A stretch of DNA of 20,000 nt from an uncultured virus (IMG/VR IMGVR_UViG_3300030012_002620) (IMGVR_UViG_3300030012_002620); one strand, 5' to 3'. Shown: positions 7,430 through 16,024, counted from the stretch's first letter. Notes: generated from the sequence alone by a model not told the origin. Translations and numbers: made by a program.

Positions 7430-7564
7430 TTATCTGCCTTGGCCTCTATATCTCTTTTGGTAGTTTTTGCTACTCACGCATTTTGAAGTCTTTGTTTTTG
7501 CGTGAACACCTGGTCTTTTCTTTTTCTGCGCTTTTACGTAAGGCTTATAAATTATCTTAGCCAT
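7430..7564 (-). CDS. Small basic protein ending YRGQGR (44 aa)
   Basis: Not in the track. MAKIIYKPYVKAQKKKRPGVHAKTKTSKCVSSKNYQKRYRGQGR has 15 K/R and no D/E. TAATG overlap with the upstream gene. The ending recalls small marine-phage proteins. Confidence 0.8.
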   Translation of the reverse strand: MAKIIYKPYVKAQKKKRPGVHAKTKTSKCVSSKNYQKRYRGQGR

Positions 7565-7878
7565 TACTTTTTTAACTCATACACAACCTCTTGTATATCA
7601 CTTCTGTTTAATGCCAATTTGAAATCTAAACCTGCTTGAAAGGTTCTTACAATTTTTCCGTCTTTTTCTATTAATATTACAGGAACAGATTTAATTTGAC
7701 TTTTAAGTTTAGGACCCTGGTCTTCTAACCAAGCGTAATCATATTTACAACCTCTTAAGTCTTCAAGATATACTGTATTTTTTTGATTCCACTTAGCATT
7801 GATTTGAACTACTCTAATTTGTTGGCTATAGCTTGTATAACTAAAAAATAAGAATAGAATTATAATTAAATTTCTCAT
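7564..7878 (-). CDS. Exported thioredoxin-fold-like protein lacking CxxC (104 aa)
   Basis: Signal-peptide-like N-terminus (MRNLIIILFLFFSYTSYSQ). VVQINAKWN lies where thioredoxins have F.A.WCxxC, followed by the cis-Pro-type motif IKSVPVILIEKDGK. ATGA overlap. Confidence 0.6.
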   Translation of the reverse strand: MRNLIIILFLFFSYTSYSQQIRVVQINAKWNQKNTVYLEDLRGCKYDYAWLEDQGPKLKSQIKSVPVILIEKDGKIVRTFQAGLDFKLALNRSDIQEVVYELKK

Positions 7879-8183
7879 CTTTTATAAACTTTATCTTCTA
7901 TTTTATTTATTCTTTCTTTATTATCTAAAATGTCTTCTTTAAGTACGTCTGTTGATTTTTCTATTTGTATAATAGTGCTTCTGACAAGTTCATCTTTTAA
8001 TTGAAATTCCATTTTTTGTACAAACTCATCACTGCTAAAATTATCTACTTTATTATTGAGGTCTTGTATTTCACCCTGTAAAGTAAACCACATGCTGGCA
8101 ATAGCTACTGTTCCTGCCACCAACATTCCTATTGTTTTTAAATCTAGTTTTACTTCTGTTTCTTCGCTAATTTTTTTTGCCAT
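7875..8183 (-). CDS. Single-TM plus coiled-coil protein (102 aa), paralogue of 9698..10003
   Basis: Hydrophobic IGMLVAGTVAIASMWF followed by heptad-like sequence; shares KDELVRST with its paralogue. Confidence 0.7.
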   Translation of the reverse strand: MAKKISEETEVKLDLKTIGMLVAGTVAIASMWFTLQGEIQDLNNKVDNFSSDEFVQKMEFQLKDELVRSTIIQIEKSTDVLKEDILDNKERINKIEDKVYKR

Positions 8184-8206: not shown

Positions 8207-8668
8207 TCATTGTTTTTTAAAAATACTCGTTGCTTTTTCTGTCGTCCTTCCTCCGAAATAAGCTAGAACAACGGCCATCATAACTTTTTCAAAAGTATCA
8301 TTCCATGTAACACCAATATTAAAAGGTATTGACTCTACGCTATCTAATATTCCTGCTAATGAAAAAATAGTTATACACCAAACTAAAACCAAAGGACGTA
8401 CATTCTTCGAAAGCCATGAATCTGATGCGGCGTCTGCTTGCCACCTGTTGGTTATAGATTCAATCTCCTTGTTTTGTTGTTCGTAAATTAATTGTTGTAA
8501 TTTTATTTTATCTTCATTACTTACATCAGATTTTCCAATTGCTGCAATTGCTTCTTTTGGACTTGTAACACCTTGTAACACGCTTCCAAGAGTTGGGTTT
8601 ATCATTCCAGCAGCTCCTAGCAACAATTTACCTACAGTTGTATTTTTAAACTTTTTCTTGTCGCTCAT
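8207..8668 (-). CDS. Putative holin (3TM holin / DUF3154-like, 153 aa)
   Basis: RWQADAASDSWLSKNVRP followed by hydrophobic helices and AYFGGRTTEK. ATGA-coupled to the endolysin. Confidence 0.7.
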   Translation of the reverse strand: MSDKKKFKNTTVGKLLLGAAGMINPTLGSVLQGVTSPKEAIAAIGKSDVSNEDKIKLQQLIYEQQNKEIESITNRWQADAASDSWLSKNVRPLVLVWCITIFSLAGILDSVESIPFNIGVTWNDTFEKVMMAVVLAYFGGRTTEKATSIFKKQ

Positions 8669-9126
8669 ATTACCATGTATTTAGTTTTTCCATCTTCTTT
8701 ATATGCTTTCAAACACCTGTTTCTGTTTTTTTGTGCATCTACATATGATACATGAACCCAGGATGGGTTTTGATCTGTTCCAAATTCCCATATCATTTGA
8801 TCATAATCAAGATTTGCTTTGATCCAGTCAAACATAGCCGCATTTGAAGCGTGACCATAAACATCATCAATATCTATCGCTTGACCTTTACAATGCTGAG
8901 ATTTTGTAGAACCTCCTATAGCTTTGTTAAGTTCTGGTGATCTATAAAAAGAATTTATCTTTATAGGTCCGCCCACCCAATCCCTCAAAGGTTGAAAAAT
9001 CATTTCAGCTACAGTCATCATATTTCCAAGATGTTCATCTGTAGGCGTGTTGTCTATTCCTCTCCTCTTTGCTGTTTCAGAATGGATAGCTTCATTGTAC
9101 GATACGTTTTTTGACAATTTATCCAT
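8665..9126 (-). CDS. Peptidase M15A-family endolysin (153 aa)
   Basis: Motifs INSFYRSPELNKAIGG, SQHCKGQAIDI and WVHVS supply the H/D/H Zn ligands; adjacent to the holin. Confidence 0.9.
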   Translation of the reverse strand: MDKLSKNVSYNEAIHSETAKRRGIDNTPTDEHLGNMMTVAEMIFQPLRDWVGGPIKINSFYRSPELNKAIGGSTKSQHCKGQAIDIDDVYGHASNAAMFDWIKANLDYDQMIWEFGTDQNPSWVHVSYVDAQKNRNRCLKAYKEDGKTKYMVI

Positions 9127-9508
9127 GAAATCTTTTTTGTTTCTTTTTAAATCTTCTAATAATTCCTTGTGCTCTACGCTCAGATATTTGTTTTTTTCTA
9201 GCGTCTCCTCCTCCTCTTTGAACTGTTCTATAGTAAGAATCTCCTTCTTTTGTCACACCTACATATCTGCTAGAACTTCTCTGGTCTCCTGTTAAACTTT
9301 TTCTATCTTTTGTTTTTAGCTTGAATCCTCCTTGTCTATTTACATCCATAGCTGCATCATCAATAGAATTATAGTCAACACCAACAGTCAATGTTTTAGT
9401 TTTTGATTTTGCCACGTCAAAACAAGGCACCCCAGGAGGACACTTCATTCTCGTAGACTTATTCTGTTTAGTAAGACTAGATATGTAAGAAAATTTATCT
9501 TTATTCAT
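9119..9508 (-). CDS. Basic hypothetical protein (~129 aa)
   Basis: ATG at 9508 preferred over the track's TTG at 9517, which overlaps the upstream micro-ORF. K/R-rich with a CPPGVPC motif; 8-nt overlap with the endolysin. Confidence 0.7.
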   Translation of the reverse strand: MNKDKFSYISSLTKQNKSTRMKCPPGVPCFDVAKSKTKTLTVGVDYNSIDDAAMDVNRQGGFKLKTKDRKSLTGDQRSSSRYVGVTKEGDSYYRTVQRGGGDARKKQISERRAQGIIRRFKKKQKRFHG

Positions 9509-9510
9509 AT

Positions 9511-9552
9511 TTAACAACCTTTACAAAAAGGACAATTGAAATCACAATCCAT
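9511..9552 (-). CDS. Cys-rich micropeptide MDCDFNCPFCKGC (13 aa)
   Basis: Fills the gap almost exactly: ATG 3 nt after the upstream TAA, and its TAA 2 nt before the next ATG. A-rich start context; 4 Cys in 13 codons. Confidence 0.6.
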   Translation of the reverse strand: MDCDFNCPFCKGC

Positions 9553-9555
9553 AAT

Positions 9556-9696
9556 TTATTTTTTTAGTGCTTGTTTTACTGCTTTCGCTTTTCTTTTTAT
9601 TTTATTAGCTTTCGCTATAATTATGTCATCTACTGTAGTTTTACTCCATAATAAAACCCACATGTCTTTCCAATATTCTTTAGTTAATTTCCACAT
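9556..9696 (-). CDS. Trp-rich cationic amphipathic peptide (46 aa)
   Basis: Not in the track. MWKLTKEYWKDMWVLLWSKTTVDDIIIAKANKIKRKAKAVKQALKK; ATG 1 nt after the upstream stop. Confidence 0.75.
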   Translation of the reverse strand: MWKLTKEYWKDMWVLLWSKTTVDDIIIAKANKIKRKAKAVKQALKK

Positions 9697-9697
9697 A

Positions 9698-10003
9698 TTA
9701 TTTTTTTTCAGTTAATTTATATAGCCTTTCATCCATTTTTAACAATCGTTCTTTTATTTCACCAACATCTTCTTTAACAGAATTTACATCTAATTGTATT
9801 TTTTCTACCGTGCTTCTAACTAATTCGTCTTTGTATTGCAACTCTATTGAGCTGACTTCTGGTTCTGGCAACTCTTTAGCCTCTTGTATTTGAGCTTGAA
9901 GACTAAAATATGTTCCTGCAAACATTATTGTTCCAAATATCATAATACCTATTGTTCCTAAATCTAATTGCACTTTAGTGTTTTGACCTATTTTCGTCGC
10001 CAT
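9698..10003 (-). CDS. Single-TM plus coiled-coil protein (101 aa), paralogue of 7875..8183
   Basis: LDL.TIG...G...A...F.LQ..IQ...KDELVRST aligns with the paralogue over the whole length. Confidence 0.75.
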   Translation of the reverse strand: MATKIGQNTKVQLDLGTIGIMIFGTIMFAGTYFSLQAQIQEAKELPEPEVSSIELQYKDELVRSTVEKIQLDVNSVKEDVGEIKERLLKMDERLYKLTEKK

Positions 10004-10004
10004 T

Positions 10005-10250
10005 TTATTTCTTTTTGCCTCCGCCCCTAGCTCTGTTGGATTTTTGTTTTTCTAATACCAACCTTCCGCTTCGGTGCGAACAATCTAACTTATCACCTTT
10101 ACGTGATTTTTTATTTTTTCTATTGAATAAATTACATTCGACTCTTTTTCGCACAGCTTCTTTTTTCTTCTGCGCTTTAGCACTTGATTTTCTGTGCTTT
10201 TTTCGAGCTTCAGGGTTGTCTCTGTAATATTTTGCAGTTCTACTTAACAT
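10005..10250 (-). CDS. Small basic protein, possible degenerate HNH-like fold (81 aa)
   Basis: KGDKLDCSHRSGRLVLEKQKSNRAR resembles the GDGKDVxH...NR pattern of small phage HNH-like proteins. Preceded by AAGGAAG. Confidence 0.55.
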   Translation of the reverse strand: MLSRTAKYYRDNPEARKKHRKSSAKAQKKKEAVRKRVECNLFNRKNKKSRKGDKLDCSHRSGRLVLEKQKSNRARGGGKKK

Positions 10251-10258
10251 CGCTTCCT

Positions 10259-10411
10259 TTATTTATAAGGAAACATCCTGTTAAGTGAATCTCTACGTTC
10301 CGAGCAGCCACAGTCTTTTCCCATTTTTTTTGAAATAGTATCTACAACTTTCTTAACTCCAGTTGCAGTTGTAACCTTTTCAATAGTGTCTCCTAAACCT
10401 CTACTTTTCAT
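10259..10411 (-). CDS. Small phage protein with GLGDT...DCGC...LN..FPY motif (50 aa)
   Basis: Not in the track. MKSRGLGDTIEKVTTATGVKKVVDTISKKMGKDCGCSERRDSLNRMFPYK; fills the gap on the operon strand. Confidence 0.8.
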   Translation of the reverse strand: MKSRGLGDTIEKVTTATGVKKVVDTISKKMGKDCGCSERRDSLNRMFPYK

Positions 10412-10415
10412 TTTA

Positions 10416-10423
10416 CAAATTTA
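10416..10423 (-). promoter_or_regulatory. Bacteroidota-type -7 promoter element TAAATTTG
   Basis: TAnnTTTG in a 26-nt intergenic gap, 4 nt before ATG 10411. Confidence 0.55.
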
Positions 10424-10437
10424 ATAAAAATATGATA

Positions 10438-10728
10438 TTAATATTTACCCTGTCTACTCTTAGGAGAGGACTGTGTAGAGCCTCCTTTTCCAGCCCATAA
10501 TTTTTTACAAGCCCAGTACCTGGCGGTTAGCTTGTTAGTAGCAGAGGAGCATTTGTGTCTTGCTTTGAATGACTTTCTTGCTTTATCTGAATAATTGTGC
10601 CCGTAGCCTTTTGCTCCGAAATGAATTATCTTTTCTTTTCCATTTGCACAGGCTTTAACCATCTTTTTTTTGCCCGCTCTATCACTAGCACGAACAACGT
10701 TGCACTTCATTTTTGCCTTGTCTGCCAT
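10438..10728 (-). CDS. Basic Cys/His protein, DUF5754-like (96 aa)
   Basis: KIIHFGAKGY...ARKSFKARHKC...ARYWACKKLW recalls the IHFG...RH...W..LW viral family (assignment from memory). TAATG overlap. Confidence 0.65.
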   Translation of the reverse strand: MADKAKMKCNVVRASDRAGKKKMVKACANGKEKIIHFGAKGYGHNYSDKARKSFKARHKCSSATNKLTARYWACKKLWAGKGGSTQSSPKSRQGKY

Positions 10729-10985
10729 TACGATACTCTTATTTTAACTACGCTTCCTGTTCTGTATAAACCATTTACTGGTACATTTCCTGCAGCAGCA
10801 GCTGAATCATCAGCATAATCAGCTAATCCAGTTATAGATGGTGAAGCAAACATAAAAGACTCTAAAGCTGCAACGGTATAGTTTTTTGTTTTACCGCCAT
10901 CAGCACCAGATGATCCGTCTGTTCCAATCAGCTTATCTGCCGCTTCTACAGTTCCGTCGTTATTGTATGTACTAATTTTTGCCAT
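10728..10985 (-). CDS. Small acidic virion/mini-fibre protein (85 aa)
   Basis: N-terminal module shared with 6678..7385. C-terminal YADDSAAAAGNVPVNGLYRTGSVVKIRV resembles fibre end motifs. Confidence 0.7.
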   Translation of the reverse strand: MAKISTYNNDGTVEAADKLIGTDGSSGADGGKTKNYTVAALESFMFASPSITGLADYADDSAAAAGNVPVNGLYRTGSVVKIRVS

Positions 10986-10991
10986 AGTTAT

Positions 10992-11243
10992 CTATTTAGT
11001 ATAATTTTTTGTTACTTTTCCAGCTTTAGTATTACTAACAACTGTTTTTCCTTTCCTGCCTTCTCTTTTCTTTTTTCTGGCAGTTTTAGCTCTTTCTGCT
11101 TTAGACATTGACCTAGCTTTTGCTAAGGGTAAACATCTATCAGGGTTTTTTTTATCTTTACTAGTTCCGCAGGCTCCTTTAATAGAACCATCTGAACCTA
11201 TACGCACCCATTTTTGTTCACGCCATTTTTTTAACTCACCCAT
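10992..11243 (-). CDS. Basic protein, DUF5872-like L..W..xKW...CG...C.P part (83 aa)
   Basis: GELKKWREQKWVRI...GACG...RCLPLAKA; K/R-rich. Family assignment from memory. Confidence 0.65.
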   Translation of the reverse strand: MGELKKWREQKWVRIGSDGSIKGACGTSKDKKNPDRCLPLAKARSMSKAERAKTARKKKREGRKGKTVVSNTKAGKVTKNYTK

Positions 11244-11359
11244 TATCCTTTTCTATTTTTCCTGAGCTTTTTAAAATCAGCTCCAGTGATCTTGTCAAAA
11301 GGAGGTGCAAGCTTTGCAATTTTCATTTGCGCAGGTGTCAGTTTCTTTTTTTTATTCAT
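11243..11359 (-). CDS. Small basic protein with KITGADF..LR motif (38 aa)
   Basis: Not in the track. MNKKKKLTPAQMKIAKLAPPFDKITGADFKKLRKNRKG; ATGA and TAATG overlaps at its two ends. Confidence 0.8.
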   Translation of the reverse strand: MNKKKKLTPAQMKIAKLAPPFDKITGADFKKLRKNRKG

Positions 11360-11505
11360 TTTTTGTGAACTTTTTGTATTTCAAAATTAAAAGACTGACT
11401 TCCGCCTTTATGTGGTTTGTATCCGCCTTTTGGGTCTTTCATCAATTTTGGAGCTCCCTTTCCTGATTTCATCCAGTGGTAGCCTTTAGGTGCTTTTACT
11501 TTCAT
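11356..11505 (-). CDS. Small basic protein with APKGYHWM motif (49 aa)
   Basis: Not in the track. MKVKAPKGYHWMKSGKGAPKLMKDPKGGYKPHKGGSQSFNFEIQKVHKK; start/stop overlaps at both ends. Confidence 0.8.
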   Translation of the reverse strand: MKVKAPKGYHWMKSGKGAPKLMKDPKGGYKPHKGGSQSFNFEIQKVHKK

Positions 11506-11585
11506 TATTTTTTCTTTTTCTTTTTCTTTTTTTTCTTCACGACCTTTTTCTTTTTAGGTCCATATGTTGCGCTTCCGTATGGCAT
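11505..11585 (-). CDS. Poly-lysine micropeptide (26 aa)
   Basis: MPYGSATYGPKKKKVVKKKKKKKKKK. Mixed AAA/AAG codons all in the Lys frame; A-rich start context; TAATG coupling. Confidence 0.75.
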   Translation of the reverse strand: MPYGSATYGPKKKKVVKKKKKKKKKK

Positions 11586-11608
11586 AATTTCTAATTTTAA
11601 TATTAAAC

Positions 11609-11770
11609 TTACTTTTTCTTTTTACTACCCTTAGCGTAATTAGGGTCTTTACAATATTTACTAGCCGCCATGTTTGCATACGCAGACGGATATGTGTCAA
11701 AAGTTCTTTTTGCCCAGGCTATACCAGCTGCACAAATTTTATTACTTTTTTTCTTTTTTTCCTTTGCCAT
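11609..11770 (-). CDS. Small basic protein with YPSAYAN motif (53 aa)
   Basis: Not in the track. MAKEKKKKSNKICAAGIAWAKRTFDTYPSAYANMAASKYCKDPNYAKGSKKKK; ATG 2 nt after the upstream stop. Confidence 0.8.
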   Translation of the reverse strand: MAKEKKKKSNKICAAGIAWAKRTFDTYPSAYANMAASKYCKDPNYAKGSKKKK

Positions 11771-11772
11771 AA

Positions 11773-12672
11773 TTAAAATGTTGTTTTTACTCTATCAGGA
11801 TATGCTTTTCCGTAAGCAGTATTAAACCTGTTTTGGAATTTTTTATAATTCGTGTTCTGACCTCCAGATACAACACTTCTAGTTTTCATGAAAGAAACAT
11901 TTCTTGCATTATACAAACCTCCTGTGTTTTGGTTGCCAATTGTTATATTAGCTCTTTTATTAGACTGATTTGCTTTTGCTTGTTTGTCAAAGTTTTTATA
12001 AGAAGCATATATAGGATTTGCAAAAGTTGTAGGTTGTCCTGCAGCATTCATTAATCCTGTTCCTATCTTTCTATTACTCTTTCTGTTTTGCACAGCACCT
12101 TTAAAATAAGCCTTTTGTCTAACGTCAGTAGCTTTACCACCTATTCTGCTTGCTATCTTTTCTACTTTCTGTGTGTATTTGTTTCCTACGTTAGTAGCTC
12201 TCTTTTGTAGTTTTTTTAGTTTCTTTTCACTTACTGAACCTGGATTCATCACAGCAGATAAGTATTTGCCATAAGCTTTTTGTACTCTAGGTGAAAATCT
12301 TTTACTTACCTTGTCTATCTTTTTTTCTCCTTTAGATATAAGTTTTTCAGATTTTACGTATCCTTTTTGAATTGTTCTAAAACTTTTACCGTAAGACTTT
12401 AATCCTTTATTAACTGTTGATGCGTGAGATTGATTCATTACAACCCCCCTGTCAGTGCTTCTTCTTGATGTTTGAGAAGTTTGTACGTTTCTTCTATAAT
12501 ATCCTCCTCGGCCAGTAGCAAAGTTTCTTGTATATCCTCCTCCTCCTTCATTATATCTTACGCTTTGGTTGTGAAAGCTGACAGGCATTGCTGGGTTTAT
12601 AAAAGCTTGATTTCTTTTTATAAAACCTTTTGATAGGCCAGTATTTCTAAATGGTTTGTTTCCGTTTGACAT
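11773..12672 (-). CDS. Highly basic low-complexity protein (~299 aa)
   Basis: ATG at 12672 preferred because the track's TTG at 12705 lies inside the promoter box. K/R/N/Q/G/S/Y-rich, about 10 acidic residues, no Cys or Trp. Confidence 0.8.
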   Translation of the reverse strand: MSNGNKPFRNTGLSKGFIKRNQAFINPAMPVSFHNQSVRYNEGGGGYTRNFATGRGGYYRRNVQTSQTSRRSTDRGVVMNQSHASTVNKGLKSYGKSFRTIQKGYVKSEKLISKGEKKIDKVSKRFSPRVQKAYGKYLSAVMNPGSVSEKKLKKLQKRATNVGNKYTQKVEKIASRIGGKATDVRQKAYFKGAVQNRKSNRKIGTGLMNAAGQPTTFANPIYASYKNFDKQAKANQSNKRANITIGNQNTGGLYNARNVSFMKTRSVVSGGQNTNYKKFQNRFNTAYGKAYPDRVKTTF

Positions 12673-12702
12673 ACCTTTAAATTTTTTTCGTTTATTTTGT
12701 AA

Positions 12703-14416: not shown

Positions 14417-16024
14417 TTAATTTTTATTTATTTCTTCTTTTTTTATTCTTTTATTTGATACAACGCAAGATGTAGTTAAAATTACACCAGCAACAGAGGC
14501 AGCATTCAAAACTGCGTTCTTTGTTACTTTAAATGGATCAATAATTCCAGCTTTATACATATCGCTGAATTTTTTGTTTTTTACATCATACCCATAGTTC
14601 AATCTACCTGCCATACAAATTTTATAAACAGGCTCTGAGCTTTCTCCTGAATTTTCAACTATCTTCCTGAATACATCAGAAAGCGCATCAAATACTATAT
14701 TATAGCCTACCTTGAAAGAATCGGAAGAGCTTCGAGGGGCTTTTTTGCGATTTTTTTTCTTGGTGGCGTTTAATAGAGCTGCTCCTCCACCAGCAACTAT
14801 ACCTTCTTCTAAGGCTGCTTTAGTTGCATGGATGGAATCATCTACCCTATCTTTCTTTTCTTTAAGTTCTACATCAGAGTTACCTGCTAATTTTATAGTA
14901 GCTACACCTCCAGCTAGTTTTGATAATCTATCTTTCAGATGCCACTTATCAGATTTATTCTTTGTAAGCTTAATTTCATTGGTTAGCCATTCTATTGTTT
15001 CTAGCTTTTTTGGGTTTTCTTCTCCTTCGAACACCAAAATTGTCTCATTTATGTCTGAAATCATGGTTTTACACGTTCCAAGGTAGCTAGAATCTATATT
15101 TTGTGCTGAATCACCAGATAATTCTGAAATTATACGAGCTCCTGTCATCAAACACAGGTCTTCAAGTAATTCAAACCTCTTAATTCCTATTCCTTCTGGT
15201 GTAATAAAGTTTGCAGTTAAGTTTTTCTTGTTAATATTCTGTGTAATGAACAATTTTACCCTATCATCAAGCTCAGAAATGATTAAAAGTGGTCTTTTTT
15301 GCTTAATTGACTGTTCAAAAGCAAAATGTAGTCTTTCGTGCATGTCAATTTTAGTGTCACTTATAACAATTAGAGGATTTTGAAACTCAACTGTACGTTT
15401 TCTAAGATTATTGACGGAAAAAGGAGTGCCATACCCTCTTTTTATACGTGTTCCATTAGTTATTTCGGTATAATCCTCGTTTGTGGAGGACTCATCCATA
15501 GTAACTACCCCATCTTTACCTACTTTATTGTAAGCGTCTGCTATCATATTACCTAAATACGTGTCTCCATTTGCTGAAATCGTCGCTACTTCTACTAGAC
15601 TAGCTTCGGTGACGTCTTTTTTGTTTTTTTCCAAAATTGACACCACATCTTTTGCAGCTTGTTCTATACCTTCTTTAGCTTGAGTAACATTATCTATTGT
15701 TTCAACTTGGTCAAAACACCTATCTATGATCGCTTTTGCTAAAACACACGACGTAGTTGTACCATCTCCAGCTTCTGTCGCTGTTTTTTGAGAGGCCTGA
15801 CGTAAAATACTAACCCCTAAGTTTTCTACAGGGTCTGATAATACTATACTGTTTGCAACAGTTACTCCATCTTTAGTTACATGGGGGGTTCCAAATTGGT
15901 CTTCGATAATTACTGTTCTACCAGAAGCTCCAAGAGTGGAGGCCACAGCTTCAGCTAATATATCAATACCTTTTTTTAGGTTATACCTACCTTCAGAACC
16001 GAAGGATATGTTCTTTTCTATCAT
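14417..16024 (-). CDS. groEL: Phage chaperonin (Cpn60/GroEL-like, 535 aa)
   Basis: Motifs VTKDGVTVA, AGDGTTT, ATISANGD, KKDRVDD, EEGIVAGGG and GIIDPFKV..A..NAASVA. Confidence 0.97.
   Translation of the reverse strand: MIEKNISFGSEGRYNLKKGIDILAEAVASTLGASGRTVIIEDQFGTPHVTKDGVTVANSIVLSDPVENLGVSILRQASQKTATEAGDGTTTSCVLAKAIIDRCFDQVETIDNVTQAKEGIEQAAKDVVSILEKNKKDVTEASLVEVATISANGDTYLGNMIADAYNKVGKDGVVTMDESSTNEDYTEITNGTRIKRGYGTPFSVNNLRKRTVEFQNPLIVISDTKIDMHERLHFAFEQSIKQKRPLLIISELDDRVKLFITQNINKKNLTANFITPEGIGIKRFELLEDLCLMTGARIISELSGDSAQNIDSSYLGTCKTMISDINETILVFEGEENPKKLETIEWLTNEIKLTKNKSDKWHLKDRLSKLAGGVATIKLAGNSDVELKEKKDRVDDSIHATKAALEEGIVAGGGAALLNATKKKNRKKAPRSSSDSFKVGYNIVFDALSDVFRKIVENSGESSEPVYKICMAGRLNYGYDVKNKKFSDMYKAGIIDPFKVTKNAVLNAASVAGVILTTSCVVSNKRIKKEEINKN

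Follow-up and report, generated by a model that had tools for sequence, protein, structure and literature searches.

Does an open reading frame of 13 codons, wedged between two genes of an uncultured phage, encode a peptide of its own, and what would such a peptide do? The question was raised by minus-strand positions 9552..9511 of the window (the whole stretch of 20,000 nucleotides analysed here, IMGVR_UViG_3300030012_002620), where the 42 nt read ATG GAT TGT GAT TTC AAT TGT CCT TTT TGT AAA GGT TGT TAA and translate to MDCDFNCPFCKGC followed by a stop. The preliminary description had taken this frame for a micro-gene with a bare CxxxCxxCxxC motif and with spacers of 3 nt and 2 nt to its neighbours, and the sequence of the window confirmed these points. 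An in-frame stop lay one codon 5' of the ATG, and the frame closed at its own stop after codon 13. The placement of the ORF upstream of the endolysin gene held only in part, as the next gene encoded a 129-aa protein and the endolysin was the second gene downstream (Table 1).

Table 1. Position of the micro-gene and of the surrounding features in the window.
Feature	Position	Strand	Remarks
Micro-gene, MDCDFNCPFCKGC and stop	9511..9552	(-)	ATG 9552-9550, TAA 9513-9511; Cys 3, 7, 10 and 13
Spacer att, 3 nt	9553..9555	(-)	From the stop (TAA) of the 46-aa gene to the ATG of the micro-gene
Spacer at, 2 nt	9509..9510	(-)	From the stop of the micro-gene to the ATG of the 129-aa gene
46-aa 'MWKLT' gene	9556..9696	(-)	Usual neighbour of the free-standing micro-gene
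129-aa gene, function not assigned	9119..9508	(-)	Directly downstream; start ATG 9508
Peptidase_M15_3 endolysin	8665..9126	(-)	PF08291, E 2.4e-16, 60.2 bits; second gene downstream
104-aa secreted protein	7564..7878	(-)	Distant homologue of the family hosting the overlapped micro-ORF
~100-aa paralogue	9698-10003	(-)	PHROG 1863, unknown function
~100-aa paralogue	7875-8183	(-)	PHROG 1863, unknown function
44-aa Lys/Arg-rich ORF (MAKIIYKPYVK...RGQGR)	7430-7564	(-)	Same position kept in L008 and L014
Small basic genes (81, 50, 96, 83, 49 and 53 aa)	~10000-12700		Apparently a conserved cluster; PHROG 6437 matched by one gene, E 1.8e-15
GroEL-type chaperonin	14417-16024	(-)	PF00118, E 7e-67

The window was AT-rich phage DNA (34% G+C), and nearly all genes of its first 16 kb lay on the minus strand. 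These included tail and tail-fibre genes, the Peptidase_M15_3 endolysin, a weak holin-like match, many small basic proteins and GroEL. The closest cultured phages by GroEL were the Flavobacterium phages vB_FspP_elemo (40% identity), and the source is probably an uncultured marine phage of Flavobacteriia. No match was found among INPHARED phages by blastn with a 1.7-kb region or by tblastn with the 129-aa, 109-aa and 46-aa proteins; a 56-nt query returned only partial matches (E>=1) in 89 unrelated records. Contigs from three marine DNA runs of three studies carried the region without differences. A contig from an RNA library, in which DNA carry-over is possible, spanned 9212-9379, outside the micro-ORF. 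The two ~100-aa paralogues bracketed the endolysin/holin-like pair, and each had one N-terminal hydrophobic segment and a coiled-coil-like tail; in relatives, one of them directly preceded a secreted thioredoxin-like gene with an ATGA overlap.

The start of the 129-aa gene was supported by the metagenomic relatives P0001 and P0002. Its product had only two matches with E<=0.001 (P0001 and P0003) among 1.84 billion representatives, with only one distant relative there, and two close relatives were present in 5.8 billion clustered proteins, an extremely narrow distribution. Close to its N-terminus the protein had a conserved C-x5-C, and its tail was basic. Two scans of IMG/VR found no relatives of it, and a metagenome scan led to one locus, L001. 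For the 46-aa MWKLT gene on the other side, no Pfam or PHROG family was found, and at least 148 relatives in IMG/VR were confirmed by tblastn. MWKLT proteins were 63-96% identical between phages and came in forms of 46-47 aa and 76-78 aa; lengths of 53, 92 and 103 aa also occurred. In the five loci examined, the endolysin lay downstream of the MWKLT gene, either directly or behind the micro-ORF, to which the window and L001 added the 129-aa gene. The MWKLT gene probably encodes a component of the lysis region that has yet to be described.

The CxxxCxxCxxC motif occurred once in the six-frame translation of the window, compared with a chance mean of 0.033 per window and at least one occurrence in 3% of 300 first-order Markov simulations. 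Short ATG..stop ORFs with at least four Cys were present in 53% of the simulated windows, and the window by itself is therefore weak evidence for a gene. Its three other short ORFs of this kind were antisense to or within larger genes, and its only 24-aa Cys-rich ORF was antisense to the tail-fibre gene. The micro-ORF was conserved in other contigs, so it is more than a product of chance. Locus L001 was reached solely via the 129-aa protein (79% protein identity) and carried in the same place a micro-ORF reading MDCDFNCPFCNGC before its stop. Three of the 42 nt were changed, all at third codon positions; two changes were synonymous and one replaced K with N. The upstream spacer was 6 nt compared with 3 nt in the window, the 2-nt downstream spacer differed in sequence, and the upstream gene encoded 77 aa compared with 46 aa, with a different 3' half.

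When the best 80 of the 148 confirmed IMG/VR loci were examined after alignment of the MWKLT protein, an intact micro-ORF was found beside the MWKLT gene in only four of them (L039, L064, L065 and L107), which marks the micro-gene as accessory or dispensable. Three further motif matches among the 80 loci were an unrelated alternative-frame string. DNA scans of IMG/VR retrieved three contigs for D-C-D-F-N-C-P-F-C in any codons and 34 contigs, with one match each, for the looser C-x3-C-P-F-C-x-G-C followed by TRR; none of the 34 carried two copies. Three of these matches were chance-like (two ended in TGG and one had an internal stop), and the other 31 ORFs had a stop directly after the fourth Cys, 30 of them with an ATG 0-1 codon before the first Cys. 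Fixing only C-D-F-N-C-P-F-C, with both ends free, retrieved nine contigs, all with an ATG 0-1 codon upstream and an end of the form x-[GA]-C-stop. The fourth Cys (C13) was invariant in all 31 intact ORFs and in all nine ends-free matches. The family had the form M-[DE]-C-[DN]-[FG]-N-C-P-F-C-x-[GA]-C with one copy per contig, and its peptides included a MECNGNCPFCMGC form beside that of the window. Among the genomes of 185,579 prokaryotic species, one representative each, no match with a stop codon was found, and three chance-like matches appeared when the stop was not required. The micro-gene family is phage-only, with no host-encoded copies. At the level of titles and abstract openings, no published description of the peptide or the family was found, and matches to the motif strings were unrelated abbreviations only.

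Nine distinct free-standing sequences (type A), from the window and eight contigs, stood in at least four gene arrangements. The micro-ORF lay between the MWKLT gene and the 129-aa gene in the window and L001, and between the MWKLT gene and the endolysin in L008 and L014. In L011 and L015, which had a 12-codon form without residue 2, it was preceded by the gene of a thioredoxin-like secreted protein and followed by the MWKLT gene. L064 shared this upstream gene, and a different downstream gene (GLGDTIEK-type) overlapped the end of the micro-ORF. In L003 and L004, an unrelated large gene stood upstream, and an inverted-repeat, terminator-like hairpin and a convergent gene followed. The 129-aa gene was absent from L008, L011, L014 and L015, where the micro-gene adjoined other genes. 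The upstream spacers of the relatives were 4, 6, 18 or 19 nt long and unrelated in sequence, and the downstream spacer was 2 nt in L001 and L014 and 10-12 nt in L008 and L011.

Among the nine copies, the variable columns at codon positions 1, 2 and 3 numbered 2, 2 and 9 (binomial P=0.009). The micro-ORF frame gave a pS of 0.745, a pN of 0.053 and a pN/pS of 0.07, compared with 3.28 in the +1 frame and 0.71 in the +2 frame, a synonymous-only pattern that is partly built in because the three scans (for D-C-D-F-N-C-P-F-C, C-x3-C-P-F-C-x-G-C and C-D-F-N-C-P-F-C) imposed the Cys, Pro, Phe and Gly codons. The argument for selection is carried by the five neighbour-found copies, by the codons that the scans left free and by the conserved ends. 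The stops TAA, TAG and TGA all occurred, and Cys was encoded by both of its codons, Gly by all four and Pro by two. Residue 11 alone varied freely (K, N, T, Q). The start, the four Cys, the Asn-Cys-Pro-Phe-Cys core and the stop position were kept, and the non-Cys residues N6, P8, F9 and G12 were conserved as strongly as the Cys. The micro-peptide was as conserved as the endolysin, with 11/12 and 11/13 residues shared between the window and L011 and L008, respectively, compared with endolysin identities of 72% and 68%, in phages that have themselves diverged considerably. A fuzzy search of L001-L198 (<=9/42 mismatches, no indels) found no decayed copies, only intact ORFs. The synonymous excess in one frame only, together with the conserved start and stop, points to strong purifying selection on the micro-ORF frame as a peptide. 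Syntenic, Cys-conserved micro-ORFs with synonymous variation, anticipated for related phage contigs, were thus found in strength, and the proposal of a real micro-gene missed by gene callers is upheld by this conservation and by the low pN/pS. Judged from these patterns, the 42-nt ORF is very probably a genuine protein-coding micro-gene kept by selection.

The string 'aaatttta.aat' preceded the ATG of the micro-ORF in L003 (1908-1930), L004, L011, L015 and L064. In some loci it formed the last codons (..KF and stop) of the thioredoxin-like gene, and in L003 and L004 the upstream gene was unrelated; about 15 nt of the earlier upstream sequence seem to have accompanied the micro-ORF on its move. 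Fusion to the neighbours by read-through or frameshift was rejected, as the frames of the micro-ORF and the upstream gene agreed in the window and L001 and disagreed in L014 (4-nt gap) and L008 (19-nt gap), no slippery heptamer preceded the stop, and the downstream genes differed.

A second form of the micro-ORF (type B) lay inside signal-peptide codons. In 24 contigs, an ORF reading M[DE]CNGNCPFC[MIN]GC before its stop had its ATG 5 nt after the ATG of a secreted-protein gene of ~107-112 codons. The product of this host gene began like MKWNVTVIALFVWVANFAQ, a typical signal peptide, and its mature part belonged to a secreted family related to thioredoxin. The 136-aa member in L011, which was without active-site cysteines of its own, matched PF00085 with 31 bits (cut-off 23.5), and other members fell below the cut-off. 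In L002, a type-A ORF lay 11 nt inside a 106-aa lipoprotein-like gene (PHROG 26616), the mature part of which was homologous to a gene of L021 with an unrelated signal peptide. In L201 and L207, the gene around the ORF had roughly 160-240 codons, the length varying with the locus and with the start assumed. The offset of the overlapped ORF was always frame +2 of the host gene. The free-standing carriers L014/L175, L008/L161, L011 and the window also possessed the secreted-protein gene, there without overlap. The 104-aa protein of the window was 25% identical to the 109-aa protein of L021 (E 3e-07), and no alternative-frame Cys ORF was found in the gene of this protein, whose N-terminus begins MRNLIIILFLFF. 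These arrangements show that the micro-ORF moves between contexts as a unit and can share its DNA with a signal peptide.

Each codon of the overlapped micro-ORF consisted of the third base of a host codon and the first two bases of the next. An NNT codon followed by Val or Ala gave Cys, hydrophobic xTx codons gave NNT and never a stop, and AAA or AGA followed by TGG or TGT gave ATG. Rates were calculated for 14 type-B loci with 10 distinct 13-codon sequences. The micro-ORF frame had a pN/pS of 0.18, and the pS of the host gene was 0.023 in the overlap compared with 0.617 in the mature part of the same genes. Most variable sites were second positions of host codons (V/A/G, W/S/T, A/V), and host third positions, often fourfold-degenerate, hardly varied. 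Pairs of genes with mature parts 30-50% identical had a median nucleotide identity of 90% over the signal region, compared with 43% for those without the Cys ORF, in groups that were defined by the motif and to whose difference recombination at the 5' end could contribute. Recombination would not, however, phase variation to one frame.

How often such a frame accompanies the secreted family was seen in 80 homologues retrieved through the mature part alone, without use of the motif. A CxxxCxxCxxC ORF lay in the alternative frame in 17 of them, an ATG-started CxxC...CxxC ORF in 23 (for example MCNNCVLSDFCEFCPIGH, MCNNCLFPDMCHFCSN and MCNDCFFVGMCDICTG, each of CxxC-x5-CxxC spacing and followed by a stop), and CxxCxxCxxC in 2; an ATG-started ORF with fewer than three Cys was present in 26. 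In 13, no ATG was found near the gene start, one of these being a motif carrier among the 17 with its ATG further upstream. An ATG-started four-Cys ORF was present in 41/80 homologues and absent from 39/80, so the Cys shadow of these signal peptides is common but not automatic. The CxxC-type ORFs lay in the first ~60 nt of the secreted-protein genes (L119-L198; e.g. L152-L156 and L191-L193). In the MCNNCxLSDFCE[FY]C subgroup, pN/pS was 0.25 in the micro frame compared with 1.14 in the host frame, and one Ser was kept via a TCT-to-AGT/AGC codon switch. No free-standing CxxC-x5-CxxC copies were found, as all 21 scan matches overlapped a secreted-protein gene.

These overlaps raise the doubt that the Cys frame is a non-functional shadow, an out-of-frame reading of a T-rich signal peptide, with the free copies being 5' ends stranded after recombination. 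The same sequence does form the +1-frame signal peptide of real genes in the 24 contigs and in L002, L201 and L207, the codon logic makes an open, Cys-rich alternative frame likely from T-rich hydrophobic codons, and a four-Cys ORF accompanied about half of the homologues retrieved by the mature protein (41/80), while occurrence beside the MWKLT gene was sporadic (4/80). However, the free-standing copies had lost every +1 start, none being present 5' of the shared sequence and the frame closing after 16-31 codons, whereas all of them kept the frame-0 ATG and stop. The pN/pS of 0.07 in frame 0, where synonymous change approached saturation, against 3.28 in the signal-peptide frame is unlike a neutral remnant, no decayed copy appeared in L001-L198, and 39/80 homologous signal peptides gave no such ORF. 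The shadow is accordingly a very improbable account of the family. Even less credible is a DNA or RNA element whose frame is open by accident, be it a promoter, a structured RNA or a linker for recombination between modules. Such an element would suit the location at module boundaries in different contexts and the ~15 nt of upstream flank ('aaatttta.aat') that seems to travel along, but the variation was phased to codon position 3, and the stop position was kept while its codon changed. The RNA fold at the micro-ORF had z=+1.1, with 180/200 shuffles folding at least as well, and no Rfam family matched the micro-ORF region. Because of the codon-phased variation, the lack of a fold and the lack of an Rfam match, this account is exceedingly unlikely.

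Selection on the peptide could also serve a cis-acting regulatory ORF, whose nascent peptide or translation tunes the flanking genes by termination-reinitiation coupling or ribosome arrest, in the manner of upstream ORFs with conserved peptides, while the free peptide would have no role. Peptide-level conservation is a hallmark of arrest peptides, which too would show the pattern seen here, and the very short spacers (in the window 3 nt upstream and 2 nt downstream, in L014 2 nt ahead of the endolysin) agree with coupling. In the window and L001, however, the micro-ORF was followed by the 129-aa gene; in L008 and L014 its downstream partner was the endolysin, in L011 and L015 the MWKLT gene and in L064 the GLGDTIEK-type gene, and L003 and L004 had only a terminator-like hairpin after it. 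The overlapped form starts after the host start codon and therefore cannot couple into the host gene, and no conserved RNA structure was found. With a partner that varies and is missing from some contigs, a purely regulatory role is decidedly unlikely. The more specific idea of a Cys-sensing coupler upstream of the endolysin had to be abandoned, because N6, P8, F9 and G12 were conserved like the Cys and because the micro-ORF preceded four different genes and was the last ORF before the hairpin in two contigs. In attenuator leader peptides, conservation is confined to the regulatory codons, and alternative terminator/antiterminator RNA structures follow. An attenuator leader peptide was rejected on the conservation of non-Cys residues, a fold no better than that of shuffles and the varying downstream genes. 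For a peptide that acts as a product, the main alternative chemistry to metal binding is a dithiol-disulfide role, in which C-P-F-C and the second Cys pair cycle as a thiol shuttle or sensor. C-P-F-C is known from glutaredoxin active sites, the CPFC core was invariant, and the micro-ORF was linked with genes of the thioredoxin-like secreted protein without active-site Cys (PF00085, 31 bits). Four Cys rather than two were invariant, though, the wider set had CxxC-x5-CxxC or CxxCxxCxxC, a spacing more typical of metal sites, and the peptide, unlike the secreted thioredoxin-like protein, lacks an export signal. A redox peptide is on balance unlikely, and a metal site is the preferred chemistry.

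The metal site was compared with known systems. The preliminary description had noted the radical-SAM signature, CX3CX(aromatic)C, which in the enzymes belongs to a core domain that spans a couple of hundred residues and includes SAM-binding elements; there three Cys ligate the cluster, and one iron is left for SAM. C3-DFN-C7-P-F-C10 matches this spacing, down to the aromatic residue ahead of C10, but the micro-ORF has 13 codons without an enzyme domain, and its fourth Cys would block the SAM-binding iron. No radical-SAM Pfam match was found among the 19 window ORFs scanned. With a 13-residue peptide, no enzyme domain and an invariant C13, the link comes down to a coincidence of motif. Small Cys4 zinc-finger proteins exist, as described in passages of two papers (PMC11241148, PMC6562870), and the zinc-finger micro-proteins of Haloferax volcanii appear in passages of three as proteins of <70 residues with two C(P)XCG motifs (PMC11241148, PMC6562870, PMC10716476); several predicted Haloferax Cys4 zinc fingers bind no zinc according to one of these passages (PMC11241148). 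The phage peptide is like them in being tiny and stand-alone with four knuckle Cys as the main conserved feature, here with one knuckle, C-P-F-C. The Haloferax proteins, reportedly of roughly 30-70 residues, have two CPXCG knuckles and a loop, whereas the phage peptide has 13 residues, the spacing C-x3-C-x2-C-x2-C and one C-P-F-C. Its Gly stands two residues after the knuckle (x-G) and is not the Gly of CPXCG, and the peptide is encoded by phages.

Ferredoxins carry C-x2-C-x2-C followed by x3-C-P, with a remote Cys-Pro after the triad. The C7-x2-C10-x2-C13 triad of the phage peptide, with a fourth Cys available, resembles the ferredoxin heptapeptide and [4Fe-4S] maquettes in spacing, but the fourth Cys is upstream here (C3-x3-C7-P), the order is reversed, and no Fe-S assembly context was seen. 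Short CxxCxxC peptides can hold Fe4S4, according to passages of two papers (PMC3320576, PMC10946529). A detached tail of a larger protein was rejected: all 31 intact ORFs of the IMG/VR scan were short, and none of its matches formed the end of a long protein, in a scan that diverged tails would escape. N-C-P-F-C-x-G-C resembles a zinc or rubredoxin knuckle. The C-x-G-C ending recalls guanylin and heat-stable-enterotoxin-type peptides, a likeness rejected as superficial because there is no export leader and the Cys count differs. For the overlapped form, a parallel is Rz1, the gene of a secreted lipoprotein lying wholly inside Rz in phage lysis cassettes. In both cases a small gene in another frame inside a lysis-region gene gives two products per DNA stretch, but the micro-ORF is of cytoplasmic type, has 13 codons, sits at the first codons of the host gene and is also free-standing. 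The peptide falls outside the radical-SAM, C(P)XCG, ferredoxin, attenuator and detached-tail classes but may act like a minimal Cys4 metal site.

Taken as a whole, the best explanation, with a probability of about 0.55, is a selected micro-protein that is most likely a four-thiolate metal (Zn or Fe/Fe-S) knuckle. The micro-ORF would be translated in line with its tightly packed neighbours to a 13-residue peptide, as suggested by the tight spacers and by A/T-rich sequence ahead of the ATG. Selection holds the start, C3, C7, C10 and C13, the N6-C7-P8-F9-C10 core, G12 and the stop right after C13. In one form the ORF stands alone at several positions of the late/lysis gene region; in the other it begins 5-11 nt within three unrelated secreted-protein genes, where one DNA stretch could serve both products because NNT codons read as xTx, the hydrophobic core, in the next frame. 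The four thiolates would wrap one metal centre, most likely Zn2+ in a CPxC-type knuckle or, alternatively, Fe or [4Fe-4S] on the C-x2-C-x2-C triad plus C3. Given a fixed shape by the metal, the 13-mer could work late in infection as a small module for binding or redox reactions, and a peptide of this length would presumably need such a cross-link for any fixed shape. Metal binding is suggested by the four invariant Cys together with the literature on short Cys peptides, and metal ligation by the four Cys has about an even chance of being correct; a minimal four-Cys metal peptide would be the most economical reading of the sequences. The suggested roles in virion iron carriage or metal scavenging drew no support from the analysis. 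The adjacency of the endolysin is suggestive and too inconsistent to claim a link, and that the peptide is tied specifically to the Zn-dependent endolysin or to the timing of lysis is an outside prospect at best. That this is the smallest stand-alone metallopeptide gene of a virus, with NNT-rich codons co-opted at least three times, in the neighbouring frame, as signal peptides of unrelated secreted proteins and acting as a seed for export signals, is conceivable but doubtful; a single 40-nt stretch would in that case be selected for two products.

Small Cys-rich micro-proteins and overlapping phage genes are both kinds already known. What is unusual here is the size of 13 residues and the way in which the ORF is either a gene of its own or hidden among the codons of a signal peptide. 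If the peptide is made and binds metal, it would lower the size limit known for metal-binding or redox modules that are genetically encoded and selected, and would add a family missed by every gene caller. The overlapped form offers a clean natural example of dual coding where a gene begins, with synonymous change ~27-fold below that in the rest of the gene. There the usual drift of the signal peptide is cancelled by the overlap, which calls for caution with conserved 5' ends and with signal-peptide design. The two forms together suggest that short T-rich ORFs and export signals can arise from one another by a simple route, and the family points to unexplored thiol or metal biology late in the infection of abundant ocean bacteria.
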